A stretch of 64,000 bases of DNA. Origin: an uncultured Candidatus Saccharibacteria bacterium. Its GTDB lineage: Bacteria > Patescibacteriota > Minisyncoccia > Phycocordibacterales > DSPV01. Below, piece after piece: positions 2,003-62,594 of the stretch. Position 1 is the stretch's first letter. Each line of letters begins with the position of its first letter. The notes under the pieces are model-generated. The model did not search any database. It was given only the letters and a program-made list of their open reading frames with translations, and was not told the DNA's origin. The stretch spans positions 10,717 to 74,716 of the forward strand of contig CAYGFK010000001.1 of assembly GCA_964349135.1 (NCBI GenBank), given 5' to 3'. The position numbers and the translations under genes are program-made.

Positions 2003-2047
2003 AGCCTGCGAGCCCGCCGATGGCGGACTCGCAGGCTCTTTTCTTTT
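2003..2047 (+). terminator. Rho-independent terminator (agcctgcgag...ctcgcaggct plus T-run)
   Basis: 10-bp inverted repeat followed by TTTTCTTTT. It overlaps the 5' end of the track ORF, which argues for the uvrC start at 2065. Confidence 0.55.
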
Positions 2048-2064
2048 GTGCTAATTTTACCGGC

Positions 2065-6267: not shown

Positions 6268-8022
6268 CTATTTCTTTTCGATATTTTCTCTTGAGAGCTT
6301 CTCGGTGATTTTCTCTAGTGAGAGCTCCTCTTTTTCTCCCGAGCGAGATTCGAGCGTGGCAGAATGTGAGCCAGCTTCTTTATCGCCAATGACAAGCCAG
6401 TAAGGAGCTTTTTGGAGTTTTACGTTGCGGACGCGTTTACCGAGAGATTCGTTCGGGTCGGAGAGTTCGGCACGAATGCCGGAGGAGGAGAGAGCGGTGA
6501 GCGCTTCGCGAGCCGCGCTTTCATGTTTCTCGCTGACGGGTAAGATGACCGCTTGCACCGGTGAGAGCCAGAGTGGGAATACTCCCGCATAATGCTCGAT
6601 AAGGATGGCGAGAAATCGTTCGATAGAGCCCATGATGGCGGCGTGGAGCATGACGATACGTTCCTTCTCTCCTTTTTCATTGATACAGGTCAGGTCGAAA
6701 CGTTCGGGCATGTTCATGTCGAGCTGGATAGTAGCCACTTGATGTTCGCGTCCGAGCGCATCTTTTCCAAGGAAGTCGATTTTTGGTCCGTAGAACGCGG
6801 CTTCGCCCGGAGCTTCTTCCGCGACAGCCCCTTTTTCGCTCACAATCTCACGGAGAACGTTTTCGGCATGAGTCCAGGTCTTTTCGTCACCGAGATATTT
6901 TTCCATTTGGTTCTTATCGTGAAGTGAAAGTCGGTAAGAAAGCGAAAAACCGAATGCTCCGTAGAATGTCGAAATGATATCCCAGATGGCGCTGGCCTCG
7001 TCTTTTACTTGTGTGGAGCGACAAAAGACGTGTGCATCATCTTGAGTGATTGACCTGACACGTGAGAGTCCCGCCATTTCGCCAGATTGTTCGTCGCGGT
7101 AGACCTTTGTCGTGTTTGCATATCGTTGCGGAAGTTCGCGGTAGCTCCAGAGTTTGCGTGCGTAAATTTGTGTGTGATGCGGGCAATTCATCGGCTTCAT
7201 GGCAAATTCATGACCTTCGCGCGTGGTAATGCGGAATAGCTCGTCCTGAAATTTTGCCCAGTGACCACTTTTCTCGTAAAGGTCTTTTTTGGTGATATGG
7301 GGTATGTCGACGCGAACGTATCCACGTGCCTTTCGCAGCTCCCAGACGAAACCTTCAAGAAGGTCGCGGACAAGGGTTCCTCGAGGTGTCCAGAGGGGGA
7401 GTCCCGCACCGACAAGTTCGGAGAATATAAAGAGGTCGAGTTCTTGCCCGAGTTTTTTATGGTCGCGTTTTTTCGCTTCCTCCACTTGGTGTTTGTAGCT
7501 CTCGAGTTCATTGGCGCTTTCAAAGGCAAGTCCGTAGATGCGGGTGAGCATTTTATTGTTTTCGTCACCGCGCCAGTAGGCGCCGGCGACACGGTCAAGA
7601 TTCCATGACCCTGATGCAATGTCTTTCGACGGATTGTCAGCGTGACCCCCCCGGCACAAATCAGTGAAATCGCCTGAGGTGTAAAAGGTGAGTTTTTGTC
7701 CGTCTTTGACGATGTCGCCGATGAGTTCGAGTTTATAATGATTACCCGCAAAGTGCCGGCGCGCTTCGTCTTCGGTGACCTCTTTACCTTCAAAGCCCGT
7801 CCACTTTTTTACAAGTTCGCGCATTTTCTGCTCTATCTTCGGTAGTTCTTTTTCACTGACGGCAAGATTGTCAAAGTCGTAATAGAACCCATTGTCGATT
7901 GCCGGACCGATAGTCGGTATCGCGTCAGGGTAGAGTTCACGTACGGCAGCGGCGAGCAGGTGTGCAAGCGAGTGGCGTTTATGGTCGAGCGAGTTGTTTT
8001 TCATGGCACTAACTATAGACAT
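6268..8022 (-). CDS. thrS: Threonyl-tRNA synthetase (584 aa, N-terminal TGS region shortened)
   Basis: Editing-domain histidines (HRHSLAHLLAAAV), a class II catalytic core and a C-terminal anticodon-binding domain are all recognisable. Confidence 0.93.
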   Translation of the reverse strand: MSIVSAMKNNSLDHKRHSLAHLLAAAVRELYPDAIPTIGPAIDNGFYYDFDNLAVSEKELPKIEQKMRELVKKWTGFEGKEVTEDEARRHFAGNHYKLELIGDIVKDGQKLTFYTSGDFTDLCRGGHADNPSKDIASGSWNLDRVAGAYWRGDENNKMLTRIYGLAFESANELESYKHQVEEAKKRDHKKLGQELDLFIFSELVGAGLPLWTPRGTLVRDLLEGFVWELRKARGYVRVDIPHITKKDLYEKSGHWAKFQDELFRITTREGHEFAMKPMNCPHHTQIYARKLWSYRELPQRYANTTKVYRDEQSGEMAGLSRVRSITQDDAHVFCRSTQVKDEASAIWDIISTFYGAFGFSLSYRLSLHDKNQMEKYLGDEKTWTHAENVLREIVSEKGAVAEEAPGEAAFYGPKIDFLGKDALGREHQVATIQLDMNMPERFDLTCINEKGEKERIVMLHAAIMGSIERFLAILIEHYAGVFPLWLSPVQAVILPVSEKHESAAREALTALSSSGIRAELSDPNESLGKRVRNVKLQKAPYWLVIGDKEAGSHSATLESRSGEKEELSLEKITEKLSRENIEKK

Positions 8023-12675: not shown

Positions 12676-13593
12676 ATGGCAAACAGGCACCTTTCACGTT
12701 CAGTCGCACTGCAGACCCTCTTCGAGTGGGATACGAGGAATGTTCTCGAGAGTGATATGCAGAACGTTATGGAGCGCAACATCATTGAGTTCGCGCCGGG
12801 TCTTGGCGACTCTGATTTTGCAGAAAGACTTATCAGTACCGTGCTCGGGAAGCATACCGACCTCGATACTATTATTCAAAAAGCGGCACCCGATTGGCCG
12901 CTCGAAAAGATTTCAACGGTAGACCGCAACGTCCTTCGTATAGGGCTTGCGGAACTTTTATTCTCGGACAGAAAAGAAGTCCCGGCTAAAGTGGCTATCA
13001 ATGAAGCGATTGAGCTTGCGAAGACGTTTGGTGGCGAGAACAGTGGCAAGTTTGTCAACGGTGTGCTCGGTAGCGTTTATAAAGAGCTTGGCGAGCCGGG
13101 AAAAGATGAAGAGTCGAAGCATAAAAAGAATCAAATCACGCTTCAGCGTTTAGCGGGTGCTATTGTGTACGCGCAACACTCTGGAGCAACGTACGTTGCC
13201 TTGGTGCACGATGTGTTCGGACACTGGACCCTTTCGAAGGGAGGTGTTGAAGAAGGTGAAGACTTGGAGAAGGGCGTTGTGCGCGAGCTCAAGCAGGAAC
13301 TCGGTCTCAAGCATCTTAAGGTGAAGGACCGTTTGGGCGAGAACCAGTATATGGCGAGCCATCCTGAAAAAGGGAAACTACTGAAACAGGTCTCGTACTT
13401 TCTTGTTGAGTCGAAATTCGAGGACATTAAACTTGAAGAGAAGGGGGGGCTCGATGACGCGCGTTGGTTTAAGCTTGCCGATATCGTGGACCTCAATTTT
13501 TACGATGATATCTTGCCAATTGTGACGAAGGCGGTTACTATGCTCCTTGCCGTCGGTACAGGCGGTAAGAGGAAGAAGAACGTTACCAAGTAA
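12676..13593 (+). CDS. nusB: NusB antitermination factor fused to a C-terminal Nudix hydrolase domain
   Basis: Residues 1-140 match NusB (VPAKVAINEAIELAKTFGGENSGKFVNGVL). Residues about 160-300 carry the Nudix box GGVEEGEDLEKGVVRELKQELGL. It is one continuous 305-aa ORF. Confidence 0.8.
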   Translation: MANRHLSRSVALQTLFEWDTRNVLESDMQNVMERNIIEFAPGLGDSDFAERLISTVLGKHTDLDTIIQKAAPDWPLEKISTVDRNVLRIGLAELLFSDRKEVPAKVAINEAIELAKTFGGENSGKFVNGVLGSVYKELGEPGKDEESKHKKNQITLQRLAGAIVYAQHSGATYVALVHDVFGHWTLSKGGVEEGEDLEKGVVRELKQELGLKHLKVKDRLGENQYMASHPEKGKLLKQVSYFLVESKFEDIKLEEKGGLDDARWFKLADIVDLNFYDDILPIVTKAVTMLLAVGTGGKRKKNVTK

Positions 13594-14418: not shown

Positions 14419-16677
14419 ATGTATCTGAAGGGCCTTGAGCTCTCCGGTTTCAAGTCGTTTGCCAAGAAGACTTCTCTTGGCTTTTCTTCGCCTATCACTT
14501 CTATTGTCGGTCCGAACGGTTCGGGAAAATCAAATGTGGCGGAAGCATTCAGGTTTGTTCTTGGCGAGCAATCCATCAAGTCGCTTCGTGGAAAACGTGG
14601 TGAAGACCTCATCTTTAACGGTTCACGCACCATTGGTCGGCAAAATCGCGCTTCCGTAAAGATTACTCTCGACAATTCAAAGCGTCTGCTCGACATTGAT
14701 TTCGATGAGGTGACCATCGAGCGTATCGTGCATCGCGACAATAATAATGAGTATCTCATCAACGGTAGCCAGGTTCGTCTTAAAGATATTCTGGAGCTTT
14801 TGGCGCAGGCGCATATGGGTCCGACAGGACACCACATCATTTCGCAGGGTGAAGCAGACCGAATTCTTAACGCGAATCTTAAAGAACGGCGACTTATGGT
14901 TGAGGACGCTCTCGGACTCAAGATTTACCAATTCAAGCGTACCGAATCTGAACGCAAGCTTGAGCGGACGCGTGAGAATATCACACAAGTCGAGTCACTG
15001 CGTCGCGAACTTGCGCCACATCTACGGTTTCTGAAGAAACAGGTTGAGAAGATAGAGAAGGCTAAAGAGCTTAAGAAAGCGCTTGCAGAACTTTACGTCG
15101 AATATCTGTCGCTTGAGCGCGCGTACCTTAGAGAGGCCGAACAGACGCTTTCTCGGGAATCGGAAGAGCCAACCAAGAAACTTGCCGAACGTGAGCATGA
15201 CCTTGCGCGCGCAAAGAAGATGCTTGAGCGCTCAAAGACGGGAGATGATAAAAGCACGCAGGTACTTGCAAGCGAGAAGGCGCTTAGGGATTTGCGGAAT
15301 CAAAAAGATGAGCTTTTGCGGGAAGTAGGGAGACTTGAAGGAGAACTTTCTGCCGAAGACCGACGATTGAAAAAACTTACGGATGAGAACGAAGCCGATA
15401 CGCACAAAACAGTCCCGCTTTCCGAAGTTCGGGCACTTGCCGGCGATATTGGGTCCCGGCTCGCTCGGGTTGAAGCAGTGTCTGATGTGTCGATGTTTCG
15501 GCAATTCATTTCCGAGATGAAAACAGTGCTTTCAGGTTTTCTCAAGCGTTTTGAAAGTGCTACGTCTACCGGCGCGCTTGAAGATGCGGTTCGGGGAATT
15601 GAACGTATCAAGACAGAGAAAGAAGAGGTGTCCGGGCGTGTCATTGCGATACAGGAGCGTGAGCGCGAGGAGCATGGAAAGTACGAGGCGCTTCGAGCTG
15701 ATATTGAAAAGGAGAAAGATGAAGGACGTGATGCCGAGCGGGAGATATTTCGTATCATGGCCGAGCAGAATGAGCTACGCGCCATTCTCAATAGTATCAA
15801 GGGCCGAGAGGCGTCTCTTTTGCTTGAGCGGGAAGAGTATAAACGAGAAGAACAAGAAGCCGTAGCCCTCGTAGGTCCGGAAACCGTTCGACGTTCGCAT
15901 GAGGCGGAGGTACCGTCTGTGCTTTCTGACCGCACCACACAACATGAACGTCGTCGGAATCTTGAGAAGATGAAAATTCGTCTTGAGGAGACGGGAAGCG
16001 GAGCCAGTGAAGAAACATTGAAGGAGTTTGAAGAAGTCTCACAACGGGATGCGTTTCTTGAACGTGAAGTCGGCGACCTGAATCGTTCGGCGGAATCCCT
16101 CGAAGTCCTCATCAAGGATTTAACTGCCAGACTCGACATTGAATTCAAGGAGGGAGTGAGGAAGATAAATGTGCAATTTGAAGAATTCTTTAAGCTCATG
16201 TTTGGTGGCGGAAGCGCTTCGCTTGAGGTTGTTCGTCCGGAGAAGCGACGCTCAAGCATGGCGGATGAGTTGTTCGCGACTGAGGCGGGCGCCCTGGTCC
16301 CTCAGGATGAAGAGGAGACTGAAGAGGGAATTGAGATACGAGTAAATTTGCCTCACAAGAAGATTCGCTCGCTTGAAGTCCTCTCGGGTGGTGAGCGTGC
16401 ACTTACCTCTATCGCCCTTCTATTCTCGATTTCACAGGTGAATCCGCCCCCGTTTATTATTCTCGATGAAACTGACGCGGCGCTTGATGAAGCCAACTCA
16501 AAGAAATACGGCGATATGATTGAAAACCTTTCGAGCTATTCTCAACTCGTGCTCATTACCCACAATCGCGAGACGATGTCTCGTGCCAGCGTGCTCTATG
16601 GAGTGACTATGGGGCAGGACGGGATATCGAAGCTTCTCTCTATTCATTTCGACGAGGCCGTGAAAGTTGCCAAATAA
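14419..16677 (+). CDS. smc: SMC-family chromosome-segregation ATPase, short form (752 aa) with no recognisable hinge
   Basis: N-terminal head with GPNGSGKSN. C-terminal head with LSGGERALTSIAL and ILDETDAALD. The middle is all charged coiled coil. Confidence 0.8.
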   Translation: MYLKGLELSGFKSFAKKTSLGFSSPITSIVGPNGSGKSNVAEAFRFVLGEQSIKSLRGKRGEDLIFNGSRTIGRQNRASVKITLDNSKRLLDIDFDEVTIERIVHRDNNNEYLINGSQVRLKDILELLAQAHMGPTGHHIISQGEADRILNANLKERRLMVEDALGLKIYQFKRTESERKLERTRENITQVESLRRELAPHLRFLKKQVEKIEKAKELKKALAELYVEYLSLERAYLREAEQTLSRESEEPTKKLAEREHDLARAKKMLERSKTGDDKSTQVLASEKALRDLRNQKDELLREVGRLEGELSAEDRRLKKLTDENEADTHKTVPLSEVRALAGDIGSRLARVEAVSDVSMFRQFISEMKTVLSGFLKRFESATSTGALEDAVRGIERIKTEKEEVSGRVIAIQEREREEHGKYEALRADIEKEKDEGRDAEREIFRIMAEQNELRAILNSIKGREASLLLEREEYKREEQEAVALVGPETVRRSHEAEVPSVLSDRTTQHERRRNLEKMKIRLEETGSGASEETLKEFEEVSQRDAFLEREVGDLNRSAESLEVLIKDLTARLDIEFKEGVRKINVQFEEFFKLMFGGGSASLEVVRPEKRRSSMADELFATEAGALVPQDEEETEEGIEIRVNLPHKKIRSLEVLSGGERALTSIALLFSISQVNPPPFIILDETDAALDEANSKKYGDMIENLSSYSQLVLITHNRETMSRASVLYGVTMGQDGISKLLSIHFDEAVKVAK

Positions 16678-32856: not shown

Positions 32857-33639
32857 GCGCTCGTATTAGGACTTGTTCAGGGAGTTACGGAGTTCATCCC
32901 GGTCTCTTCTTCGGGTCACCTTATTCTCGTGCGCGATTTCTTTGGTATTGTCGCTACTCCTGCCGACCTCGCCTTTGATGCCGTACTTCAGTTAGCCACG
33001 GCAATATCTGTGGCTTGGTATTTCAGGAAAGACCTCATCAACTTGCTCTTGGCGTTTGGGCGCAAACTTCAAGGACACCATGTGGACGAGGAATATCGCG
33101 TGCTCTTTCTTTCACTTGTACTTGGCACGATTCCTGCTGTACTCGCAGGACTCTTACTCGAAGATTCGATGGAGACACTCTTCCGTTCCAGCACGCTCGT
33201 TGCGTGGACGCTCATTGTCGGTGCCGTGCTCATGTATTCGGCAGACCGCATAGGGTCGCAAAAAGACGGACTCACGGTTAGGAAGGGTTTCTTTGTAGGT
33301 CTATTTCAAGTCCTCGCGCTTGTGCCGGGAATCTCGCGTTCAGGGGCCACTATCTCTGGAGGTCTCTTTGCCGGTCTGAATCGGGAGAATGCAATTCGAT
33401 TCAGTTTCCTTCTTGGATTTCCGATTCTTTTCGGTTCGGGTATAAAAAAACTCCTTGAGTTGCTTAGCGCGGGGGCGCTCGACACTCTCGGCGCATCTCT
33501 TGTTATTGGCTCAATTGCCGCGTTTGTATCAGGACTTGCCGCCATCCATTTCCTTGTCTCGTATCTAAAACGGCACGGTCTCAGTGTCTTTGTATTCTAC
33601 CGTGTAGCGCTAGCCGTTCTCATTCTCGTATTTCTCTAA
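32839..33639 (+). CDS. uppP: Undecaprenyl-diphosphatase
   Basis: MDSILQALVLGLVQGVTEFIPVSSSGHL is a canonical UppP/BacA N-terminus. Confidence 0.9.
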   Translation: MDSILQALVLGLVQGVTEFIPVSSSGHLILVRDFFGIVATPADLAFDAVLQLATAISVAWYFRKDLINLLLAFGRKLQGHHVDEEYRVLFLSLVLGTIPAVLAGLLLEDSMETLFRSSTLVAWTLIVGAVLMYSADRIGSQKDGLTVRKGFFVGLFQVLALVPGISRSGATISGGLFAGLNRENAIRFSFLLGFPILFGSGIKKLLELLSAGALDTLGASLVIGSIAAFVSGLAAIHFLVSYLKRHGLSVFVFYRVALAVLILVFL

Positions 33640-34205
33640 AACAAAGCCCCTGTCTTGTTGGCAGATGGTGCCTCCCATGACGAGGTGTCGAGTTTGAAAT
33701 CTTTAACGGTCCCGTTGTCGAGATAGCTAAGTTTGCCGTTTTTGCGAGCATAGTCATACAGTTCTTTAGTGATGCGCACGTCTTCAATGCAGTATTTTCG
33801 TAATTTCTCTATCTGGCCCTCGTTCCACCACTTGATAGCATCAAGGCCGTGTCCGATTTTCTTCTTGCCGAGTGTTGCCTCGGCGAGCGTATCGAGTTTA
33901 ATGCGTCGTCCGAGCGAGTGGCGCACTTCTTTGAGGAGGTCGAGACTTCGTATCTTTGTCAGGTCTCCACGATAGTATTTATTCAGACAGGGGATATCAA
34001 AGTGGTCAGAATTGAAACCGATAAGCAGGTCAGCTTTTTCAAGAATAGGCCACAGGTTCTCGAGTTCCTCTTCTAGGTAACTTGAATAGGTATCTGATTC
34101 TGAATCGTAGATGCAGACGATGGACATGTCGAGGTCGGCCGGATTGTTTGAGCCGACATCGGTGAAGATGTTTTTTGTTTCGATATCAAAAACTACCTTT
34201 CGCAT
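33636..34205 (-). CDS. DEDD-type 3'-5' exonuclease (RNase H-like fold)
   Basis: FDIET...(Exo I), FNSDHFDIP (Exo II), YCIEDV (Exo III). Confidence 0.6.
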   Translation of the reverse strand: MRKVVFDIETKNIFTDVGSNNPADLDMSIVCIYDSESDTYSSYLEEELENLWPILEKADLLIGFNSDHFDIPCLNKYYRGDLTKIRSLDLLKEVRHSLGRRIKLDTLAEATLGKKKIGHGLDAIKWWNEGQIEKLRKYCIEDVRITKELYDYARKNGKLSYLDNGTVKDFKLDTSSWEAPSANKTGALF

Positions 34206-34226
34206 GGTTTGTATAGTCTACGCTAG

Positions 34227-35180
34227 TTACTTGAGAGGTAGAGCGTGAGTTACCAGGAAATCCCGAAGGGTTACGTCGCCCATGCCGAAGCCGACGGTGG
34301 GAACTGGCTCAGCGTCAAATAGTTCCATGAGGTTGTCATACCGACCCCCTCCGAAGAGTGAGCGACGGTTTTCTTCATGGGTGTCGAATACTTCGAATAC
34401 CATACCGGTATAGTAGTCGAATCCTCGAACAAGGGTCGGTTCATAGATGACGTTAGTGATACCTGCGGAGGTGAGTGCTTCAAGGACATCCGTTGGTCCG
34501 TTGCTTGCACTGAGCACGAACTCTTTGTTGGAGAACTTTGTCCATTCCGCGGTGAATTCCTCGTCGGTGATTTTGTTCTTCTTATCTATGAGTCGCATCG
34601 CTTCGGGTAGGGTTAGCGGGTCCTTGAGAAGTCCCGATATCTCCTTTTCGCTGTGTGCGCGGTTATTAATCTTGATTTGAAAATCCTGCTCCTTGGCACC
34701 AAACGCTTTCATAAGGTCGTAGGCGAGCTTTATGATTTCAACGTCGGCTTCTGTCCCTGCGATTCCCATGAGGTCGCAGTTGAGTTGCCAGTGTTCACGA
34801 CGTCGGCCGCGTTGAGGCCTCTCGTACCGGAAACAATTGGCGATGGTGAACCAGCGAAGAGGGAACTCTCTTTGGAGTTCTCGTCGTTTGGCGGCGACCA
34901 TACGAGCAAGACTCGGAGTCATTTCAGGTCTCAAGGCCACCTCACGGTCTCCTTTATCGCGGAAGAGGTACATTTGGTCGTTGACGATTTCGTCGCTTCC
35001 CTTGCGTCGGTAAAGTTCGGCGTACTCAAGAATCGATGAGCTGTACTCAGCGTAACCGGCTTTTTCGACCGTTTTTCGCCACGTAGAGAAGATATAGTTT
35101 TGGACTGCCATATCCTCGGGGTAAAAATCCCTAACGCCTTTATAGGGCTCTGTAGAAAGTTTATTTACTTTTTCTGACAT
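34227..35180 (-). CDS. hisS: Histidyl-tRNA synthetase catalytic core with no anticodon-binding domain (317 aa; HisZ-like architecture)
   Basis: GVRDFYPED, ALRPEMTPSLARMV, motif 2 FRYERPQRGRRREHWQ, motif 3 GGGRYDNL. The ORF ends right after motif 3 and the next gene is the unrelated exonuclease. Confidence 0.75.
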   Translation of the reverse strand: MSEKVNKLSTEPYKGVRDFYPEDMAVQNYIFSTWRKTVEKAGYAEYSSSILEYAELYRRKGSDEIVNDQMYLFRDKGDREVALRPEMTPSLARMVAAKRRELQREFPLRWFTIANCFRYERPQRGRRREHWQLNCDLMGIAGTEADVEIIKLAYDLMKAFGAKEQDFQIKINNRAHSEKEISGLLKDPLTLPEAMRLIDKKNKITDEEFTAEWTKFSNKEFVLSASNGPTDVLEALTSAGITNVIYEPTLVRGFDYYTGMVFEVFDTHEENRRSLFGGGRYDNLMELFDAEPVPTVGFGMGDVTLRDFLVTHALPLK

Positions 35181-35345: not shown

Positions 35346-35618
35346 ATGGCTAAGAAATTGTATGTCGGTAACCTCTCATGGGGTACTGACGATGACAGCT
35401 TGCGCAGCGCCTTCGCTGAAGCCGGTTCCGTGTTGTCCGCTCAGGTCCTCAAGGACCGAATGACGGGCCGCTCACGTGGATTCGGATTCGTCGAAATGGA
35501 AGATGCGGATGCTCAGAAAGCGATTGAGATGCTTGATGGCAAGGATCTTGATGGCCGAAACATTCGTGTCAATGAAGCGAAGCCGCTCGCCGAGCGACCA
35601 GCTCGCCGGGAGTTCTAA
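35346..35618 (+). CDS. RRM-type RNA-binding protein
   Basis: RNP-2 LYVGNL and RNP-1 RGFGFVEM. Terminator at 35628-35662. Confidence 0.88.
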   Translation: MAKKLYVGNLSWGTDDDSLRSAFAEAGSVLSAQVLKDRMTGRSRGFGFVEMEDADAQKAIEMLDGKDLDGRNIRVNEAKPLAERPARREF

Positions 35619-50214: not shown

Positions 50215-52095
50215 TTATGTAAAGCTCTCCGGGTCTACCGATAATTCTGCCGATGGGGGAAGTGAGCGGAGTATTGAGAGAATTCGTTCATTGGGCCACT
50301 CTTTTGCGGGTATCTTCATGACGCCGGATAGACCAGATTTGTTCTTTGCTTGTTTAAGAAAGACCGGGAAGATGTCTATTTCTTGAGGTGCAAGCGCTTG
50401 GACAAGTGCGTGCATCTCTTTACTGATTACCTCTTTCTGGCCGGAAAGGGTTATCTTTATCGGCACGGAAAATGGGGGATAGAGTAGTGTTTTGCGTAGT
50501 GCCAATTCGCCCTGAAAGAACGAGCTCAGGCTTCCTTCCGCAAAACTTGCAAGCGCATGAGAGTTTTCTGTTCGTGTTTGAATGATAAATTCTCGTTCCG
50601 CGAATTCAATTAAGTTTCCAAGGAGATAGCTGACACGTTCGTTTATGCGAAAATCAGGTATTGAGAAGAGTTCGTCAATCGAGGCGATAGCAACTGTACC
50701 CACGGGAGCTAAGAGATACGGGAGCATGAATTCGGTTCCAACAAGAACACTTCCGGGGGAGTTATAAAATTTCTCGATAAGCGCTTTCGCCTGTTTTCTG
50801 TTGGTTACCGATTCAGAATCCATTCTGATGACGACAAGGTCGTCGAAGACCTCATGGAGTTCTCGTTCGACGAGTTCAGTCCCGATGCCGAACGTGGCGA
50901 GTTTCCAACTGTTGCAGGAGGCGCACCTAATCGACGCATCTATTTTTTCTCCGCACCGGTGACAGAGGAAAAACCGGTTTTTTTCAGAAGTTCCGTGAAG
51001 TACGGTCGGGTGACCACATACGCTACAGGAAAGCAGGGTGCCACAATCTCCGCATATGGTTGTTGGGGCGAGCCCTTTTCTCCCGGCAAATACAATGACA
51101 CGGTCTGCAGAGGCTCGAGCGGTACGTATCTTTTCAATGAGTTCATCCGAGAGTGCGCGAGGCACACCTTTCAGACTTGGTTTATACGGCTTCATGTCGA
51201 TAAGGGAGACTCGAGATTTGGTGCTACGTCTCCATTTCAGCGGGACGAGTTCATCGATTTCATGCTCGTAGTACCGTTCAATAAGCGCGCTTGATAAAAT
51301 GGTATCTCCGAAAATGAGGCGTGCATGGGCGTGCCGGGCGTACGTACGTATGAAGAAACGGAAATCGATGAAAGGTCGGTTTCGTTGTTTATATGACGCA
51401 GAATTCTCGCGCTCTACGATAATGGTCCCGGCGCGGTCTGCGGCAATGCCGATGAATCCGGGAGTTGAGACCATAAGGAGCGGATGCGTTTCTTTATATA
51501 TTCGTTCGATATCAAGTGTCAGTGCGCGTAGTGTCTTTTTGCTGTGCAGCAGGAGCGAATACTCTTCGATACCTTTTGAGAGTTTTTCGAGAGCCGTTTC
51601 TGCTTCTTGTATCGTCGGGACGAGGAAGAGCACAGACTCTTTATGCCTGAATGCTTCGCGGATGAGAGAGCGGTATTGGCTGAACCTCTCCTCACTGTCG
51701 TTTTGGATTGCCTGCAGGGTCGGACGGGCAGTAGGCGCCGGCTCATGACGGGCTTCCGGGATTTTTTTGATGAGATTGAGCGGAAGAAGCGCGGTAAGTG
51801 TCGCTCCGAACGGAGCCGCATAGAATCGAGAGGTCTCCCGGGCTGCGGTAATGAAGGCGTCGCTTGAGAAACGCGGAGAGATGATTTTCCCAACTTTCTT
51901 CATTGAGAATGACGACGATTTAATTGACGTCTTTTCTTCACGGGCCTTTTTTGCCCCGATAACGAGTCCTGTCACGCTCTTCGAGCGAAGAGGGATATGC
52001 ACAAGACTGCCGATAGGTATTTCCTGCGCGCTGAAATACGTGAGGGTGTCGGCCCACACGCTTTTCTCGAGCGGGATGACCTCTATAATATGCAT
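50215..52095 (-). CDS. priA: Primosomal protein N' (replication restart helicase)
   Basis: Helicase core and Zn-binding CGDCGTLLSCSVCGHP...CHRCG...CASCNS. Confidence 0.9.
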   Translation of the reverse strand: MHIIEVIPLEKSVWADTLTYFSAQEIPIGSLVHIPLRSKSVTGLVIGAKKAREEKTSIKSSSFSMKKVGKIISPRFSSDAFITAARETSRFYAAPFGATLTALLPLNLIKKIPEARHEPAPTARPTLQAIQNDSEERFSQYRSLIREAFRHKESVLFLVPTIQEAETALEKLSKGIEEYSLLLHSKKTLRALTLDIERIYKETHPLLMVSTPGFIGIAADRAGTIIVERENSASYKQRNRPFIDFRFFIRTYARHAHARLIFGDTILSSALIERYYEHEIDELVPLKWRRSTKSRVSLIDMKPYKPSLKGVPRALSDELIEKIRTARASADRVIVFAGRKGLAPTTICGDCGTLLSCSVCGHPTVLHGTSEKNRFFLCHRCGEKIDASIRCASCNSWKLATFGIGTELVERELHEVFDDLVVIRMDSESVTNRKQAKALIEKFYNSPGSVLVGTEFMLPYLLAPVGTVAIASIDELFSIPDFRINERVSYLLGNLIEFAEREFIIQTRTENSHALASFAEGSLSSFFQGELALRKTLLYPPFSVPIKITLSGQKEVISKEMHALVQALAPQEIDIFPVFLKQAKNKSGLSGVMKIPAKEWPNERILSILRSLPPSAELSVDPESFT

Positions 52096-53618
52096 TAGAG
52101 CTCTCGCAAAATCTTAATTTTCGCACCAAGCTTTGCGAGTCGCTCGGCGATGTCTTCGTAACCGCGATTGATGGAATAGATATTTCTGAGAATCGATGTC
52201 CCTTCTGCACCGAGCATACCGATGAGTACGATGGCTGCGGGGCGGAGCGCCGGAGGGCAGATTATCTCATTTGCTTTGAGTTTTGTCGGACCGTTGATAA
52301 AGACGCGGTGAGGGTCGGCGAGAATAATGTCGGCACCGAGGCGGTCAAGTTCTTTGTAATGAATAGCGCGCGCTTCGTAGACCCAATCATGAATGAAGGT
52401 TTGTCCTTTCGCTTGAGTTGCGATGATGGCGAAGAAGGGAAGGTTGTCTATGTTCAGACCGGGGTATGGTCGAGCTTCGATTTTTTCGTCGAGTGCGGTG
52501 AGTTTTGAAGGAAATGTCTCAATGTCGACAAGCGCGGTCTGTCCGTTCTCAGACATATACGGTTTGCTCTTTTTGAATCGAAATCCCATCTTCTTGAGTT
52601 TCAGGAGCTCAAGCTCAAGAAAATGTATCGGACAGCGTTTTATGGTCAGGTTTGATTTGGTCACGATAGCAACCGCAAGCATGAACATGGATTCAATAGG
52701 GTCTTCGCTTAGGTGGTAGCGCGCCTTCACCTCAATATCCGGTTTGCCGTGCACCACGAGCGTGGTTGTGCCTATTCCGTCTACCTGTACGCCGAGCTCA
52801 TGAAGGAAGAAACAGAGGTCCTGAATTTGATAGTTCGCCGATGCGTATTTGATGGTTGTGGTTCCTTTAAACCGTGCGGCCGCCATCAGGACGTTTTCGG
52901 TTACCGTATCGCCTGATTCGTAGAGAATGATTTCACGACTCTTTGGTTTGCCGACCGTGACTCGGTGACCGGCACCAGAGGTTTTAATAGAAACGCCAAG
53001 GTTTTCAAGAGCGTAGAAATGCGGGCGCACTGTGCGTTTGCCAAGCTTACAACCTCCCGATTGCGGAAGAAAGAAGCTTTTTGCGATATGCATCAAAGGC
53101 CCGATGAGCATGATGACACTCCGTGTTTTTTGCGCTGATGCCACATTGATTGTAGAAAGTGAGAGTTTAGACGGCGGTTTGATGATAAGGTCGCTGTTTA
53201 CCCATCGAACTGAAACACCGATAGATTGCAGAACTTCAATCATGCGATACACCTCTTCTATTCTCGGCACGCTTACGAGCGTTGTTTCTCCTTTGTTGAG
53301 GAGTGCGGCGCAAATAAGACCCATCGCGGCATTTTTCGATGTCTTTGTGGTGATAGTTCCTGAGAGTGGGTGTCCGCCTTCGATTTCGAGATTGATGGCA
53401 CCATCGCCGATATGAATGATGTCTTTATTGAGAATGTTGCTGATGCGGGAGAGGAGGGAGGCGCTGACGTTTTGCGTTCCACTCTCGATGCGAGCGACAG
53501 CGCTCTGTGTCGTACCCAGACGCTTTGCAAACGCGTCTTGAGTGACACCACGCTCTTCGCGGAGATTTTTAATCAAGGAACCCAGCACAGAGAGCTGTTT
53601 GTTAGGTTTAGTAGGCAT
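52095..53618 (-). CDS. murA: UDP-N-acetylglucosamine 1-carboxyvinyltransferase fused to an N-terminal XRE-family HTH domain
   Basis: The first ~70 aa form a Cro/C1 HTH (LREERGVTQDAFAKRLGTTQSAVARIESG). The rest aligns end-to-end with MurA, including active-site Cys (GGCKLG) and C-terminal IYSINRGYEDIAERLAKLGAKI. The ATG at 53618 follows an in-frame TTG. Confidence 0.85.
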   Translation of the reverse strand: MPTKPNKQLSVLGSLIKNLREERGVTQDAFAKRLGTTQSAVARIESGTQNVSASLLSRISNILNKDIIHIGDGAINLEIEGGHPLSGTITTKTSKNAAMGLICAALLNKGETTLVSVPRIEEVYRMIEVLQSIGVSVRWVNSDLIIKPPSKLSLSTINVASAQKTRSVIMLIGPLMHIAKSFFLPQSGGCKLGKRTVRPHFYALENLGVSIKTSGAGHRVTVGKPKSREIILYESGDTVTENVLMAAARFKGTTTIKYASANYQIQDLCFFLHELGVQVDGIGTTTLVVHGKPDIEVKARYHLSEDPIESMFMLAVAIVTKSNLTIKRCPIHFLELELLKLKKMGFRFKKSKPYMSENGQTALVDIETFPSKLTALDEKIEARPYPGLNIDNLPFFAIIATQAKGQTFIHDWVYEARAIHYKELDRLGADIILADPHRVFINGPTKLKANEIICPPALRPAAIVLIGMLGAEGTSILRNIYSINRGYEDIAERLAKLGAKIKILREL

Positions 53619-53665
53619 CAAGACATTATAGCATAGATGCTATATCTTGCATATCTGGAATCTGG
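53619..53665 (-). promoter_or_regulatory. Putative promoter with an overlapping 18-bp palindromic operator (TATAGCAT-AG-ATGCTATA, 53627-53644) immediately upstream of HTH-murA
   Basis: Minus-strand reading is ATGCAA-17-TATAAT-GTCTTG-ATG. The palindrome covers the spacer and the -10 box. Confidence 0.45.
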
Positions 53666-53929: not shown

Positions 53930-54943
53930 ATGGCGTTTTTCTCAAAAAAATTAGGTATTGACCTTGGTACGGCAAACACCCTCGTATTTGTTCCCGGCAA
54001 AGGAGTCATTCTCAATGAACCGTCGGTAGTCGCACTTTCCGAACCGGACCGACGAATACTTGCGGTTGGTGTTGAAGCGAAGCGCATGATTGGCAAGACG
54101 CCGGAGAGCATTATCGCGTACCGACCCATGAAGGACGGTGTGATTGCCGACTACCGAGTGACGGAGACGATGCTTCGTTATTTTATACAAAAAGCACTCG
54201 GTCGCTGGAATATTATGAAGCCGGAAGTAATGATTTCCGTGCCGGCAGGTATCACGTCAACAGAACGCCGTGCCGTTATTGAAGCGGCTATTCGTGCCGG
54301 CGCGAAAAATGCGTATGTGGTCAAAGAGCCGATTCTTGCCGCTATCGGCGCGGGTATTCCTATTCATGAACCGGTTGGCCACATGGTCGTGGATATCGGA
54401 GGTGGTACCACTGACGTTGCTGTCATTTCACTCGGTGGCATCGTGGCATCGACATCCGTGAAATGCGCCGGAAATCGAATTGATTCGGCAATCGCTGACT
54501 ATCTTAAGAAAACGTACAATCTCGCTATCGGAGACAAAATGGCGGAAGATATCAAAATACAAATCGGTTCGGCGCTTCCTCTCGAGGAAGAGCTTTCAAT
54601 GATGGTGAAGGGGAGAGATTTTGTTACCGGCCTTCCTCGTTCGACAGAGTTCAAGACGAATGAGGTTGTCAAAGCCATCGGTCGTGAATTACGCGAAATG
54701 GTGAAGGCAATACGCGAAGTGCTTCAGGAGACACCTCCGGAGCTTGCGGCAGACATCATTGAGCGTGGCATTATTATGACCGGAGGAACTTCTCAATTAC
54801 GCAATTTGCCGGAACTTATTTTCCGTCGCACGGGTGTGCCTTGTAAACTGGCGAAAGATGCGCTCTTTTGTGTTGCGCGCGGTACCGGTGTTGCTCTAGC
54901 GCATCTCGAAAGCTACAAGAAAGCCATCGTCGCCAAGCGGTAG
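53930..54943 (+). CDS. mreB: Rod-shape actin homolog MreB (copy 1, stand-alone)
   Basis: LGIDLGTANTLVFV..., DIGGGTTDVAV, ATPase core. Confidence 0.9.
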   Translation: MAFFSKKLGIDLGTANTLVFVPGKGVILNEPSVVALSEPDRRILAVGVEAKRMIGKTPESIIAYRPMKDGVIADYRVTETMLRYFIQKALGRWNIMKPEVMISVPAGITSTERRAVIEAAIRAGAKNAYVVKEPILAAIGAGIPIHEPVGHMVVDIGGGTTDVAVISLGGIVASTSVKCAGNRIDSAIADYLKKTYNLAIGDKMAEDIKIQIGSALPLEEELSMMVKGRDFVTGLPRSTEFKTNEVVKAIGRELREMVKAIREVLQETPPELAADIIERGIIMTGGTSQLRNLPELIFRRTGVPCKLAKDALFCVARGTGVALAHLESYKKAIVAKR

Positions 54944-57498: not shown

Positions 57499-58755
57499 AT
57501 GCGCCAGTCAGAGCTATTCACTAAAACACGAAAAGAGGCCCCAAAGGATGAATTATCCAAGAATGCGAAGCTTCTTATCCGTGGAGGATTTATTCATAAG
57601 GAAATGGCGGGTGTGTACTCGTTTCTTCCGCTTGGATTGCGCGTGCTCGATAAGGTAGTGAATGTGATTCGTGAAGAGATGAACGCCGTTGGCGGGCAGG
57701 AGGTGCACTTGTCGACACTTCAAAGTAAGGAAGCGTGGGAAGCAACCGGACGATGGGACGACAAATCAGTCGATACGTGGTTTAAGACATCACTGCGCTC
57801 TGGTGGCGAAATCGGTCTTGGTTTTACGCATGAAGAGCCTATGACACGAATGATGCGGGAGCATGTGCGTAGTTTTCGCGACCTACCGGTATACCCATAC
57901 CAATTTCAAATGAAGTTTAGGAATGAGGAGCGCGCGAAGTCAGGGCTTATGCGAACCCGTGAATTTTTAATGAAAGACCTCTATTCAATTTCTCGAGATA
58001 CCAAAGAGCATGAGCGTTTCTATGAGACGATAACTCTGGCGTATAAAAAGGTGTTTGAACGTCTTGGCATTGGCCCGTTTACGCATCTTACCTATGCGTC
58101 AGGCGGTTCGTTTAGCAAATATTCTCACGAGTTTCAGACGCTTTGTGAGGCCGGGGAAGACACCATTCATCTCTGCCGGGACTGTGGCGTGGCGGTGAAT
58201 GAGGAAATACACAGCGAACAGAACACGTGCCCTCAGTGTAAGAGCGAAGCGCTTGTTGAAAAGAAGGCGGTTGAGGTAGGTAATATATTTTCGCTCGGTA
58301 CTCGCTTTTCTGAAGCACTCGGGCTTGTGTATGTGGATGAACGGAATGAATCAAAGCCTGCCGTGATGGGCAGTTACGGTATTGGTCCGGGACGATTGAT
58401 TGGTACCATTGTTGAATTGTTTTCTGATGAAAAGAGCATTCTCTTCCCGAAGAGTATCGCTCCTTTCTCGGTACACCTCTTGCTTCTTGATACGGACAAT
58501 GAAAAAGCGCGTACGCAGGCGGAAATCCTCTACAATGAACTATCCGCTGATGGCATCGACGTTCTCTTTGATGACAGGCCTTCGCGTGCAGGAGAGAAGT
58601 TCGCGGACGCAGACCTCATTGGTATTCCGCTTCGTCTTGTCGTGAGTGAACGTACGCTCAAAGAGGACGCTATAGAAGTAGTAAACCGTCGGGGTGGGGA
58701 TGTCTCCCATGTGCCGGCGAAGAAAATAAAAGGGTATCTGCATGAACATCTTTGA
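57499..58755 (+). CDS. proS: Prolyl-tRNA synthetase, minimal bacterial-type without the INS editing domain (418 aa), with a CxxC-x13-CxxC insertion
   Basis: LLIRGGFIHKEMAGVYSFLPLGLRVL, motif 2 FRNEERAKSGLMRTREFLMKD, and an anticodon-binding domain. CRDCG...CPQCK replaces the loop before GNIFSLGT. Confidence 0.85.
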   Translation: MRQSELFTKTRKEAPKDELSKNAKLLIRGGFIHKEMAGVYSFLPLGLRVLDKVVNVIREEMNAVGGQEVHLSTLQSKEAWEATGRWDDKSVDTWFKTSLRSGGEIGLGFTHEEPMTRMMREHVRSFRDLPVYPYQFQMKFRNEERAKSGLMRTREFLMKDLYSISRDTKEHERFYETITLAYKKVFERLGIGPFTHLTYASGGSFSKYSHEFQTLCEAGEDTIHLCRDCGVAVNEEIHSEQNTCPQCKSEALVEKKAVEVGNIFSLGTRFSEALGLVYVDERNESKPAVMGSYGIGPGRLIGTIVELFSDEKSILFPKSIAPFSVHLLLLDTDNEKARTQAEILYNELSADGIDVLFDDRPSRAGEKFADADLIGIPLRLVVSERTLKEDAIEVVNRRGGDVSHVPAKKIKGYLHEHL

Positions 58756-59809
58756 GGAACAAATCGAAAAACTCTACCGGCTTTTTTCGCACGACTTAGG
58801 AATTGACCTTGGTACGGCAAATACGCTTGTCTACGTACGGGGGAGGGGCATTGTGGTCAATGAACCTTCGGTTGTTGCGCTCAATCAGAAAACCGGACAG
58901 GTGGTTGCTGTCGGCAATCAGGCCAAAGCCATGCTCGGCAGGACACCGCCTCATATCAGCGCGATTAGACCGCTTGTTGAGGGTGTCATCTCGGATTTCG
59001 AAGTGACGGAAGAAATGATTTCGTACCTTATGAATCGCGCGCAGGAAGGGGGGCGCAAGTATTTCGGTCCTCGCGTTGTGGTTGGTGTGCCGTCCGGGGT
59101 GACGAACGTCGAGTCGCGCGCCGTGCGTGATGCAACAAAGAATAGTGGGGCACGCGAAGTGTACATTGTGGAACAGCCAATGGCTGCGGCAATCGGCATC
59201 AGACTTCCGGTCAAGGACCCGGTGGGGAATATGATTATCGATATCGGCGGTGGAACTACCGATATTGCCGTTTTGTCGCTTGGCGGAACCGTTCGTTCTC
59301 GAAATCTAAAGACTGCTGGTGACCATTTCAATAACGATATCGTGTCGTACATCAGAAATGAGTTTAAAATACTGATTGGTGAGAAGACGGCAGAGCAGAT
59401 TAAGATTGCTATCGGTTCGGCAATGCATGAAGGGGAGTCGATGGAAGCGGTTGTGAAAGGCCGTGATTTGGTGACAGGTCTGCCTCGAGAAGTGGTGGTG
59501 ACTGATGCGGATGTTCGAGAGGCGATTGGTCAATCGGTGGACACCATCGTTGAGGCGACACGAGAAGTTCTTGAAAAGACACCGCCCGAGCTGGTGTCGG
59601 ACATTATGCAAAAAGGTATCTTTCTTGTCGGCGGGGGCGCGCTCCTCAAAGGTCTTGCCAAATTCCTCGAACAGAATTTGCGAATTCCGATTCATGTTGC
59701 TGATGACCCGCTGACGGCCGTTGCCCGTGGGGCAGGCATTATTCTTGAGGATATGGACCGTTATAGAGATACTCTGATTCACTATGAAGAGGATGATAGG
59801 GCTGGCTAG
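58742..59809 (+). CDS. mreB: MreB (copy 2, heading the mreBCD-mrdA operon)
   Basis: LGIDLGTANTLVYV, DIGGGTTDIAV. Sequence is distinct from copy 1. Confidence 0.9.
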   Translation: MNIFEEQIEKLYRLFSHDLGIDLGTANTLVYVRGRGIVVNEPSVVALNQKTGQVVAVGNQAKAMLGRTPPHISAIRPLVEGVISDFEVTEEMISYLMNRAQEGGRKYFGPRVVVGVPSGVTNVESRAVRDATKNSGAREVYIVEQPMAAAIGIRLPVKDPVGNMIIDIGGGTTDIAVLSLGGTVRSRNLKTAGDHFNNDIVSYIRNEFKILIGEKTAEQIKIAIGSAMHEGESMEAVVKGRDLVTGLPREVVVTDADVREAIGQSVDTIVEATREVLEKTPPELVSDIMQKGIFLVGGGALLKGLAKFLEQNLRIPIHVADDPLTAVARGAGIILEDMDRYRDTLIHYEEDDRAG

Positions 59810-60611
59810 GTCAGCGCGCGGACCGCGCCACAAGGTGTCCTTTGTATTCACTCTGGTGCTCGTTCTTGTTGCTATACTCTCTTTTTGGAAGCCGTCTGTG
59901 ATATCCAATGTGGTCTACACGATATCCGTACCGTTTTCGCGTTCGTGGCTCTATATTGAATCGAAGAGCAGAGAAGTGCTTGTGTATTTTGAATCAAAAA
60001 CAGTTCTTGAACGTGAGAACGAAAAGCTTTCTCAGGATTTGCGTTCGGCACAGCTTGAACTTTTGTTATTTACATCGCTTGCGCCCGACGTTGCCCGTCT
60101 AAAAACATTTCTTGCCGATGAGCGACCGAAGAGTAGCATTGTGTCAGGTGTCTTAAGCGCGCCACCGCGCTCCCCGTATGACACACTCGTTATCGACGCC
60201 GGCGCAAGAGACGGCGCGACCATCGGAGCACTTGTGCACAGTATGGAAGGTGTCGCGCTTGGTACCATTACAGAAACGTTTAGAGACTTTTCTCGAGTGA
60301 CCCTCTTCTCTTCTCCGGGGAATGAGATTGGGGTGCGCATTGGTGAATCGCAGACTCAGGTGCAGGCGATTGGTATTGGCAATGGAGAGTTTCAGTTGCT
60401 TCTCCCGCGCGAACTCGAGATACATGTCGGAGACCCGGTTGCCTTTCCGGACCTTCTCCCGTCAATTATCGGCGAAGTTGGTTCGGTCACGTATCAGGAC
60501 GTTGATTTCCTCCAACTTGTTTCATTTCGTATTCCCGTGAACATGAATACACTTCGTTATGTTTTGGTGGAGACAGAACCTACTAACGGTGAAGGTGAGA
60601 ATGGAAACTAA
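59784..60611 (+). CDS. mreC: Rod shape-determining protein MreC
   Basis: N-terminal TM, coiled coil, beta-rich C-terminal domains. Operon position. Start overlaps the mreB end. Confidence 0.7.
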   Translation: MKRMIGLARSARGPRHKVSFVFTLVLVLVAILSFWKPSVISNVVYTISVPFSRSWLYIESKSREVLVYFESKTVLERENEKLSQDLRSAQLELLLFTSLAPDVARLKTFLADERPKSSIVSGVLSAPPRSPYDTLVIDAGARDGATIGALVHSMEGVALGTITETFRDFSRVTLFSSPGNEIGVRIGESQTQVQAIGIGNGEFQLLLPRELEIHVGDPVAFPDLLPSIIGEVGSVTYQDVDFLQLVSFRIPVNMNTLRYVLVETEPTNGEGENGN

Positions 60612-60882
60612 GACACAATCTAAAATATTTTTTGTACTCGTGTGGGTGTTTTCGCTTATCGCGCTCCCGTGGTGGGGGACTTCGATTGTGGCGCTCATGT
60701 CTTTTTTCGTGTTTCGCTCTCCGGCAGTATCGCTTACCCTCGGGTTTGGTATGGATGTATATTATGGTTCGATAACGTCCGCATTCTTTCCGTTTCCATT
60801 TCTTGTCTCGGCAGTCATTCTTAGTTTTCTTGTCCCGCGTTTTAAACGACAACTTGTCTTTTGGCGCTCGGGCGACGCATAG
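60601..60882 (+). CDS. mreD: MreD-like small membrane protein
   Basis: 93 aa with 3 TM, overlapping the mreC stop. Position between mreC and PBP2. Confidence 0.5.
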   Translation: METKTQSKIFFVLVWVFSLIALPWWGTSIVALMSFFVFRSPAVSLTLGFGMDVYYGSITSAFFPFPFLVSAVILSFLVPRFKRQLVFWRSGDA

Positions 60883-60887
60883 TTTTT

Positions 60888-62594
60888 ATGAAGTTTTTTT
60901 CATTTAGGAAAAAGAGACTGAGGGAGAGTTCGGCTGAGCATGAAATAGAGCCGGACGAGATTTTCCTTGATTCAAGTAATTTACCTCAATTCGACAAATA
61001 CCAATTTGAGGGCCGGCTCGAAAAAGCGATTTCGGCCAAGACAGTTACGTTTTGGGGCTTCGCCTTTCTCTTGTGCGGACTGATTCTTCTTGGCCGGACC
61101 TGGGTATTACAGATTGCACGAGGTGAGTCATACGCAGAGTTGGCGCAGAAGAATCGTTTGCGCAGTTCGGTTATCTTCGCTCCCCGCGGTCTTATCGAAG
61201 ACAGGAATGGGGAACCGCTTGCCGTGAATAAAGCGAACGAAGAACATCCTCATTATCCCTCGAGAGAATACGTGACCGGAGGCGGTTTCAGTCACTTACT
61301 AGGGTATATCGAGTATCCAAAAACCGACTCCTCAGGTGTTTATTTTCGTACGGAATACGTTGGAAAAGAAGGTGTCGAGTATCTCTACAACGCGGTTCTT
61401 AAGGGAGAGAATGGTCTCCAGATTAGCGAAGAGAATGCGCGGGGAGATGTCGAGTCGGAGAGCGTTATCCAGCTCCCCCGATATGGACTCAACCTCACGC
61501 TCTCGGTTGATAAGCGTTTACAGCAGAAGCTTTATGAACTCATCAAGTCGACTGCGTCTGACCGAGGGTTTGTGGGAGGTGCGGCGGGTATCATGGACAT
61601 TGAAACCGGAGAACTCTTAGTGCTCACGAGTTTCCCCGAATATGATTCGAATATCATGTCCGAGGGAAGCGACCCTGAAGCAATCTCTGATTTTCTCACC
61701 GACGAACGCCAAGTCTTCCTTAATCGAAGCGTTGACGGTCTCTATGCGCCCGGCTCAATTATGAAGCCGTTCATAGCGGTAGGTGCCCTCATTGAAGGGG
61801 TCATTTCCCCCGACAAACAAATCTTGAGCACGGGTTCCATTTCTATTCCGAATCCATACAACCCTTCGAGCGTTTCCGTGTTTCGGGACTGGAAGGCGCA
61901 CGGTCTTGTCGATATGCGAGAAGCGCTTGCCGTATCGTCAGATGTTTATTTCTATGAAATTGGAGGAGGATTTGAAGACCAACAAGGGCTTGGCATTGAG
62001 CGCATAAAGAAATACCTCATGCTATTCGGTTTTGGTGACCGTAATTCTGACAACGAACTACTTCAGGTATCAGGCACTATTCCGGACCCGAAATGGAAAG
62101 CGGAGACCTTTGAAGGAGAACCATGGCGCATTGGAGATACGTATAACACATCAATCGGGCAGTATGGAACGCAGGTGACCCTTATGCAGGTGCTTCGGGC
62201 GACAGCCGCACTTACAAATGGCGGGCGTCTTATCGAGCCGACTCTCATGGTCGGCGGGAATCGTGGTCGTGTGCACGAAAAGAAGCTTGATATACCGGAA
62301 AGCGTTCTCAAGGTGGTTCAGGAAGGTATGCGAGATGCCGTGCTCTTCGGTACGGCATCAGGTCTTGGGGTTGGCGGAGTTGAGGTGGCGGCGAAAACCG
62401 GAACTGCCGAAATCGGGAGTCGGAAGCTTTATGTCAATTCGTGGATTGAAGGATTCTTTCCCTATGACGACCCTCGATACGCTTTTGTCGTACTTATGGA
62501 GCGAGGACCTCATGACAACACGGTGGGTGCCCTTTTCGTCATGAGACAGTTTATCGACTGGCTAAGCATTGAGGCCCCTGAATATCTCAAATAG
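60888..62594 (+). CDS. mrdA: Penicillin-binding protein 2 (elongasome transpeptidase)
   Basis: SIMKP (SxxK), SSD (SxN), KTGTAE (KTG). Confidence 0.85.
   Translation: MKFFSFRKKRLRESSAEHEIEPDEIFLDSSNLPQFDKYQFEGRLEKAISAKTVTFWGFAFLLCGLILLGRTWVLQIARGESYAELAQKNRLRSSVIFAPRGLIEDRNGEPLAVNKANEEHPHYPSREYVTGGGFSHLLGYIEYPKTDSSGVYFRTEYVGKEGVEYLYNAVLKGENGLQISEENARGDVESESVIQLPRYGLNLTLSVDKRLQQKLYELIKSTASDRGFVGGAAGIMDIETGELLVLTSFPEYDSNIMSEGSDPEAISDFLTDERQVFLNRSVDGLYAPGSIMKPFIAVGALIEGVISPDKQILSTGSISIPNPYNPSSVSVFRDWKAHGLVDMREALAVSSDVYFYEIGGGFEDQQGLGIERIKKYLMLFGFGDRNSDNELLQVSGTIPDPKWKAETFEGEPWRIGDTYNTSIGQYGTQVTLMQVLRATAALTNGGRLIEPTLMVGGNRGRVHEKKLDIPESVLKVVQEGMRDAVLFGTASGLGVGGVEVAAKTGTAEIGSRKLYVNSWIEGFFPYDDPRYAFVVLMERGPHDNTVGALFVMRQFIDWLSIEAPEYLK

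Follow-up and report, generated by a model that had tools for sequence, protein, structure and literature searches.

The gene at 34227..35180 (minus strand) of the window, by which we mean the whole 64,000-nucleotide stretch of DNA analysed here, is probably the organism's canonical histidyl-tRNA synthetase (HisRS, encoded by hisS), which would have lost its anticodon-binding domain (ABD) by one clean deletion and would charge tRNA-His via the acceptor end; we put the probability of this reading at roughly 70%. The ORF starts with ATG, stops with TAA and encodes 317 aa, in which Pfam recognizes only tRNA-synt_His (PF13393, 3.7e-39) and tRNA-synt_2b (PF00587). The protein consists of the class II catalytic domain and the HisRS insertion domain, up to the interdomain linker, and HGTP_anticodon (PF03129) was absent from it in the Pfam scan. 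The short gene would derive from the archaeal/eukaryote-like type of HisRS that Paceibacteria (Parcubacteria, CPR) carry; the C-terminal class IIa ABD was presumably cut away cleanly and only once, at the interdomain linker, in the common ancestor of a large Paceibacteria subclade.

The catalytic core and its active site

The sequence-only reading had described the catalytic motifs of this protein as intact, and the alignments agree. Motif 2 and its loop, FRYERPQRGRRREHWQ (aa 117-132; 34785..34832, minus strand), which hold the ATP arginine R118 and the acceptor contacts E120, R121, Q123, R126 and R128, were placed by the 1adj/4rdx alignment, with residue roles from PMC4357726, and the LRPEMTP segment in the histidine-binding 'ordering loop' region (aa 83-89; 34914..34934, minus strand) by alignment to T. 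thermophilus Thr83 (Tian 2015). The HisRS-specific helical insertion domain spans about aa 166-245 (34446..34685, minus strand), as judged from the helices of an AF2 model. It is followed by the histidine-1 motif RGFDYYTG (aa 252-259; 34404..34427, minus strand), which aligns to T. thermophilus LVRGLDYY and includes the arginine equivalent to the catalytic Arg259 of E. coli HisRS, and by motif 3, GGGRYDNL (aa 277-284; 34329..34352, minus strand), which holds the ATP arginine R280.

The same reading had the protein stop right after motif 3, which proved incorrect: 33 more residues precede the linker position, and in the AF2 model these form a strand (295-301) and a helix (302-311) that complete the catalytic domain. 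In the alignment, the protein ends where the linker and ABD of its 413-aa relative P0043 begin. The model as a whole has a pLDDT of 92.9 and TM scores of 0.85-0.88 to HisRS structures.

Contact residues were mapped from the T. thermophilus HisRS-tRNA complex (PMC4357726) via the 1adj/4rdx alignment, and their conservation was counted over 120 truncated sequences and 105 full-length relatives. The mapped set comprises contacts to ATP (R118, R280), to histidine (T88, D136, R252, Y256/Y257, G277-279), to A76 (Q69, E120), to C74 (R126, and also Q123 in the motif 2 loop) and to G-1 or its phosphate (K14, R121, R128), together with the cross-dimer contacts to G-1 made by D75, G77 and R79 of the DKGDR loop. 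These residues are invariant or nearly so across the 120 truncated sequences, and the 105 full-length relatives match. R84, E86 and T88 are invariant in both sets (120/120 and 105/105); R252, G253, Y256 and Y257, as well as G277-G279 and R280, are invariant in all 120 truncated sequences. At position 121 the variation is conservative (R in 89 and K in 31 of the 120), and K14, Q69 and G77 have one or two exceptions each among the same sequences.

The domain architecture is equally that of HisZ, the regulatory subunit of the short-form ATP phosphoribosyltransferase (HisG), which is likewise a HisRS-like core (∼300-390 aa) without an ABD, and the sequence-only reading was right to call the architecture HisZ-like. 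Automated pipelines give the family the HisZ name as well: NCBI's PGAP often labels its members 'ATP phosphoribosyltransferase regulatory subunit', while JGI and submitters use 'histidyl-tRNA synthetase'. The sequence, however, is not HisZ-like, scoring 270.1 bits against TIGR00442 (hisS) versus 170.8 bits against TIGR00443 (hisZ); the latter is far below its cut-off of 271.65 bits, and all of the NF0089xx hisZ models also score far below theirs. The equivalog cut-off of TIGR00442 (286.75 bits) is not reached either. The best-scoring stretch against that model covers profile positions 2-193 of 406, and the shortfall fits the missing ABD, which makes up a third of the model. The best sequence match in the PDB is the HisRS of Thermoplasma acidophilum (1wu7, 4.7e-65), followed by trypanosome HisRS (about 1e-60), bacterial HisRS (about 1e-30) and HisZ (1e-13 to 1e-19). 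Foldseek returned the same order, with archaeal and trypanosomal HisRS on top (TMq 0.85-0.88; 0.87 for 1wu7). By these comparisons the 317-aa protein is an archaeal/eukaryote-like HisRS core, missing the ∼95-aa HGTP_anticodon domain and most of the linker relative to full-length HisRS of that type.

HisZ itself has no adenylation activity: it is a catalytically inactive paralogue that partners HisG(S) in a hetero-octamer (PMC10795190, PMC9437257). Here, in contrast, the adenylation and aminoacylation residues that are degenerate in HisZ are invariant (R118, R280, E120, R126, R128), and the gene is a positional ortholog of hisS, in a clade nested inside Paceibacteria HisRS and situated at the hisS locus. 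We saw neither hisG nor any other his gene among the ORFs scanned in the 64-kb window or among the called genes of the truncated-hisS loci that we inspected. One genome of the clade, GCA_040384425.1, encodes a trpD/C/F fusion, trpB, trpA, trpE and trpG (L090:1-6194), 4 kb upstream of its truncated hisS. This trp operon indicates some amino-acid biosynthesis in the group, a point in favour of HisZ, and it cannot be assumed that 'CPR make no amino acids' when dismissing HisG. We nevertheless consider a HisZ identity highly improbable, and the HisZ-type database name wrongly implies a role in the regulation of histidine biosynthesis.

Locus and phylogeny of the short gene

In the window, hisS is followed by genes for an exonuclease, uppP/thioredoxin, a uvrD-like helicase, rpoD and dnaG. 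The spacer between the hisS stop (TAA) and the exonuclease start is 21 nt long (34206..34226, minus strand), and the exonuclease itself is a 189-aa RNase_H_2/DEDD-like 3'-5' enzyme (33636..34205, minus strand; Pfam PF13482, 1.4e-10), unrelated to HisRS as had been noted from the sequence alone. The locus of the full-length relative P0043 has the same order (hisS, a 189-aa RNase_H_2 exonuclease, BacA, UvrD/PDDEXK, RpoD, DnaG), and P0043 also shares the motifs and 64% identity over the catalytic and insertion domains. A scan of GTDB with a query alignment headed by full-length P0043 gave as its best 80 loci only full-length Paceibacteria hisS; the exonuclease lies directly downstream in about 72 of these 80, most of which go on with thioredoxin-like and UvrD-like genes. 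The layout of the window recurs in four truncated loci on long NCBI/ENA contigs, and about 45 truncated loci from JGI metagenomes mostly have the exonuclease a few bases past the stop and a single hisS. Members of the truncated clade are present in GCA_028714635.1, GCA_040384425.1 and GCA_036584635.1, on contigs of 76-257 kb. The shared locus and gene order indicate that the short gene is the canonical hisS, shortened in place. By phylogenetic nesting and conserved gene order alike, it is the positional ortholog of the canonical full-length gene.

Divergent from hisS, the window carries a gene for a 90-aa protein with a single RRM (35346-35618, plus strand). We rejected it as an RNA-binding partner acting in trans, since it adjoins full-length hisS too in many loci.

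The gene might instead encode a specialised paralog that makes His-AMP for another acceptor or purpose, with a second, canonical HisRS responsible for translational charging. Natural synthetase homologues without an ABD usually have non-canonical jobs (reviewed in PMC9437257), as YadB/GluQRS, PoxA and the aa:carrier-protein ligases illustrate; the NCBIfam hisS score falls just under its cut-off, and our view of this genome spans 64 kb. Against this, the gene sits at the ancestral hisS locus, the 80 full-length GTDB loci come from 80 differently named genomes with none represented twice, and a second hisS was absent within +/-10 kb in about 50 truncated loci. The contacts to A76, C74 and G-1 are also kept and the rate of evolution is not accelerated (see below), both of which would be unexpected after release from tRNA charging. 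A paralog is on these grounds unlikely, with a small but appreciable probability. CysRS* of Desulfobacterales, YadB/GluQRS and PoxA do resemble the short HisRS as synthetase cores that function without an ABD, and CysRS* still charges tRNA used in translation (PMC9437257). They are, however, extra paralogues beside a canonical enzyme, whereas the truncated HisRS itself appears to be the canonical copy.

Among 5.8e9 proteins searched, hundreds of relatives came from Patescibacteria/Paceibacteria, at 61-73% identity and mostly 295-335 aa long, with a few of up to 386 aa. The truncated family comprises at least 120 clusters at 90% identity, plus about 45 further metagenome loci. P0043 is the only ABD-bearing protein among the top 120 matches, and clustering at 50% reduces the short family to one representative, nearly everything else being 400-445 aa long. 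A joint alignment of 230 sequences shows two classes of tail beyond the C-terminus of the query, 0-10 aa long in 124 sequences and 78-106 aa long in the other 106, with none between, and the C-terminus THxLPL is conserved among the short proteins. In an NJ tree of the catalytic domain, all 120 short sequences form one clade with no full-length member inside (bootstrap 83% in a 30-sequence subsample), nested among full-length Paceibacteria HisRS of 400-445 aa; bootstrap for the sister group of the clade was only 4% in the NJ subsample.

Over the catalytic domain, the truncated proteins are 56.7% identical to other Paceibacteria full-length HisRS, versus 58.4% for the full-length sisters, showing no rate acceleration in the truncated clade, and per-column entropy showed no rise in its catalytic domain. 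The clade does differ from its full-length relatives in a shorter insertion domain (mean length 79 versus 96 aa) and a less acidic catalytic domain (net charge -4.8 versus -8.4), and it carries six clade-specific substitutions (M70, A82, K103, C135, M138, V290).

That a normal hisS was merely cut short here, by decay into a pseudogene, by a sequencing frameshift or by misassembly, is refuted. Database fragments do exist, P0277 lying on a nanopore contig with many broken genes and P0121 and P0203 at contig ends. The identical protein is nevertheless encoded on four independent contigs (ENA and Logan assemblies), so that the ORF must be a real gene and not an assembly artefact; hundreds of orthologues share the conserved C-terminus, the next gene begins only 21 nt past the stop, and purifying selection is strong. 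As to individual sequences, P0203 was rejected as a short representative for being a contig-end fragment and, from their C-terminal sequences alone, P0149 and P0179 appear cut off and P0256 frameshifted.

One sub-lineage of the truncated clade has a HisRS of 283-291 aa, in which ∼30 further residues are gone from the insertion domain (L132:7509-8360, L134:9998-10873 and L135:9995-10861; also L138, L139 and L141). At L132 and L134 this hisS lies directly after a 415-aa ORF that matches the ABD profile; our guess is that this ORF is another class IIa synthetase, possibly ProRS. An unrelated CPR-like lineage provides a further case, P0227 (L092:4001-5266, ENA contig k141_308364), a complete ABD-less HisRS of 318 aa that is 39% identical. 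In the 335-nt gap that follows its stop, the C-terminal half of an ABD is still encoded (...KLDKQLKYASRKGIPYVAILGPEEVEKKLVTIKNMQTGEQ...), with low-complexity sequence before it; this has the look either of an ABD decaying independently or of an interrupted gene.

Search for a detached domain, and other genes of the window

That the ABD is absent and not encoded nearby, as the gene's first description held, was confirmed. A tblastn search with the ABD of P0043 found no detached ABD in the 64-kb window, and scanning all six frames with a profile built from 33 Paceibacteria HisRS ABDs matched only ThrRS and ProRS there. The 21-nt spacer holds no ABD remnant and has no room for one, and no ABD ORF was found in about 45 truncated metagenome loci. 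Run against the 5.8e9 proteins in a word-index search of limited sensitivity, the profile gave 11 short hits and no stand-alone family: four of the hits keep part of the catalytic domain, most come from contigs no longer than about 2 kb, a Leptospira protein of 63 aa is among them, and the only hit from a long contig is a frameshift fragment. The sole match of a single-sequence ABD search, P0121 (136 aa), was rejected as a contig-end fragment. P0277 and similar sequences were not accepted as split genes, as they start at the internal Met of GFGMGD and the nanopore contig is full of broken genes.

Split synthetases are known, e.g. AlaRS, PheRS and PylRS isoforms (PMC11580382), and most of the genome lies outside the 64-kb window, so the ABD could in principle be a separate small protein encoded elsewhere that reassociates with the core. 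Given that neither a free-standing ABD ORF nor a remnant turned up in the window or the truncated loci, and that none of the 11 short hits to the 33-ABD profile resembles a stand-alone family, we regard a split enzyme as improbable, and outright loss of the domain from the canonical HisRS as the better account. The ThrRS (6268-8022, minus strand) and ProRS (57499-58755, plus strand; HGTP_anticodon) of the window keep their homologous ABDs, which indicates that the loss is specific to HisRS.

This ProRS has a length of only 418 aa, was matched by the bacterial proS profile at positions 1-237 and then in its C-terminal part, and seems to be without the INS editing domain. Some further genes of the window deserve mention. 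In an unusual fusion, a 508-aa protein (52095-53621, minus strand) joins an N-terminal XRE-type HTH_3 (aa 17-68) to a full EPSP_synthase/MurA-fold (aa 81-495), and a 305-aa ORF (12676-13593, plus strand) fuses NusB (aa 7-136) to a NUDIX hydrolase domain (aa 159-274). An SMC_N-family protein (14419-16677, plus strand) has only 752 aa; typical bacterial SMC proteins have ∼1100-1200 aa, and the length points to a shortened coiled coil. In a 429-aa UvrC-like protein (2020-3309, plus strand), the UVR motif and an RNase H endonuclease domain are present, and no GIY-YIG or HhH domain was detected at E<=1e-4. Two MreB paralogues, MreC and a PBP2-type transpeptidase occur together (53930-54943, 58742-59809, 59784-60611 and 60861-62594, all on the plus strand), a full set of rod-shape machinery in a CPR-type genome. 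ARAGORN found no tRNA or tmRNA in the window (1-64000), and no Rfam family reached its gathering threshold there.

Proposed charging through the acceptor end

The remaining 317-aa core would still make histidyl-adenylate and transfer histidine to tRNA-His. It would select its tRNA through the acceptor end only, that is, the extra 5' G-1 and its phosphate, C73/C74 and A76, by means of the motif 2 loop, the N-terminal lysine, the insertion domain and the cross-dimer DKGDR loop. Among the identity elements read by HisRS, G-1 is the major one, and the ABD is described as contributing weakly (PMC4357726). The catalytic domain of E. coli HisRS alone has an aminoacylation efficiency of ∼0.6% (Augustine & Francklyn 1997, as cited in PMC4357726) and a Km for histidine of 45 uM, versus 30 uM for the wild type (PMC4082485). 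The dominance of G-1, the weak role of the ABD and the activity of the E. coli fragment make it most likely, by analogy, that tRNA-His is charged by acceptor-stem (G-1/C73) recognition alone. The hisS score, the positional orthology and the retained acceptor contacts likewise favour the earlier suggestion of a HisRS working without anticodon recognition. The step from intact residues to an active enzyme that is the sole HisRS in the cell is one that we infer from the sequence.

The E. coli fragment, 'Ncat', has the same boundary as the short HisRS, consisting of the catalytic and insertion domains (∼320 aa) without the ABD, and, as described in PMC4357726 and PMC4082485, it still activates histidine and aminoacylates tRNA-His. 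It is, however, a laboratory construct of the bacterial type working at ∼0.6% efficiency, whereas the form described here is natural, archaeal-type, characteristic of a deep clade and known from its sequence. An efficiency loss of more than 99%, as in the engineered fragment, would be a heavy cost unless compensated. The short enzyme would be dimeric, and it too may have lost some efficiency, which slow growth might make tolerable. Eukaryote-type systems reportedly depend more on the anticodon, and the closest solved relatives of the short HisRS include trypanosome HisRS. No tRNA-His gene was found by ARAGORN in the window or in more than 170 related loci. For the wider claim, that the whole ancient Paceibacteria clade serves its histidine codons via a single anticodon-blind HisRS of 283-317 aa and that ABD erosion is recurrent in CPR (P0227), our confidence is only a little better than even.

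Both the enzyme family and the idea that a catalytic fragment can be active were known before, and the proteins are already in public databases. A full-text literature search brought up no account of an ABD-less HisRS clade in CPR, Patescibacteria or Parcubacteria, and as far as we could find, a natural, clade-wide and apparently canonical ABD-less HisRS is new. TIGR00442 is used as a single-copy marker and the short protein scores under its cut-off, so that hisS may be counted as missing in completeness estimates. A compact, possibly anticodon-blind HisRS is also of potential interest for genetic-code engineering. If our reading is correct, the short HisRS would be the natural counterpart of a protein-engineering result, a minimal HisRS architecture fixed in a large bacterial clade, and would let one test in nature how far HisRS can do without reading the anticodon. 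The anticodon of tRNA-His would then be free of synthetase constraint, and the finding bears on how far ultra-small genomes can reduce their translation components.
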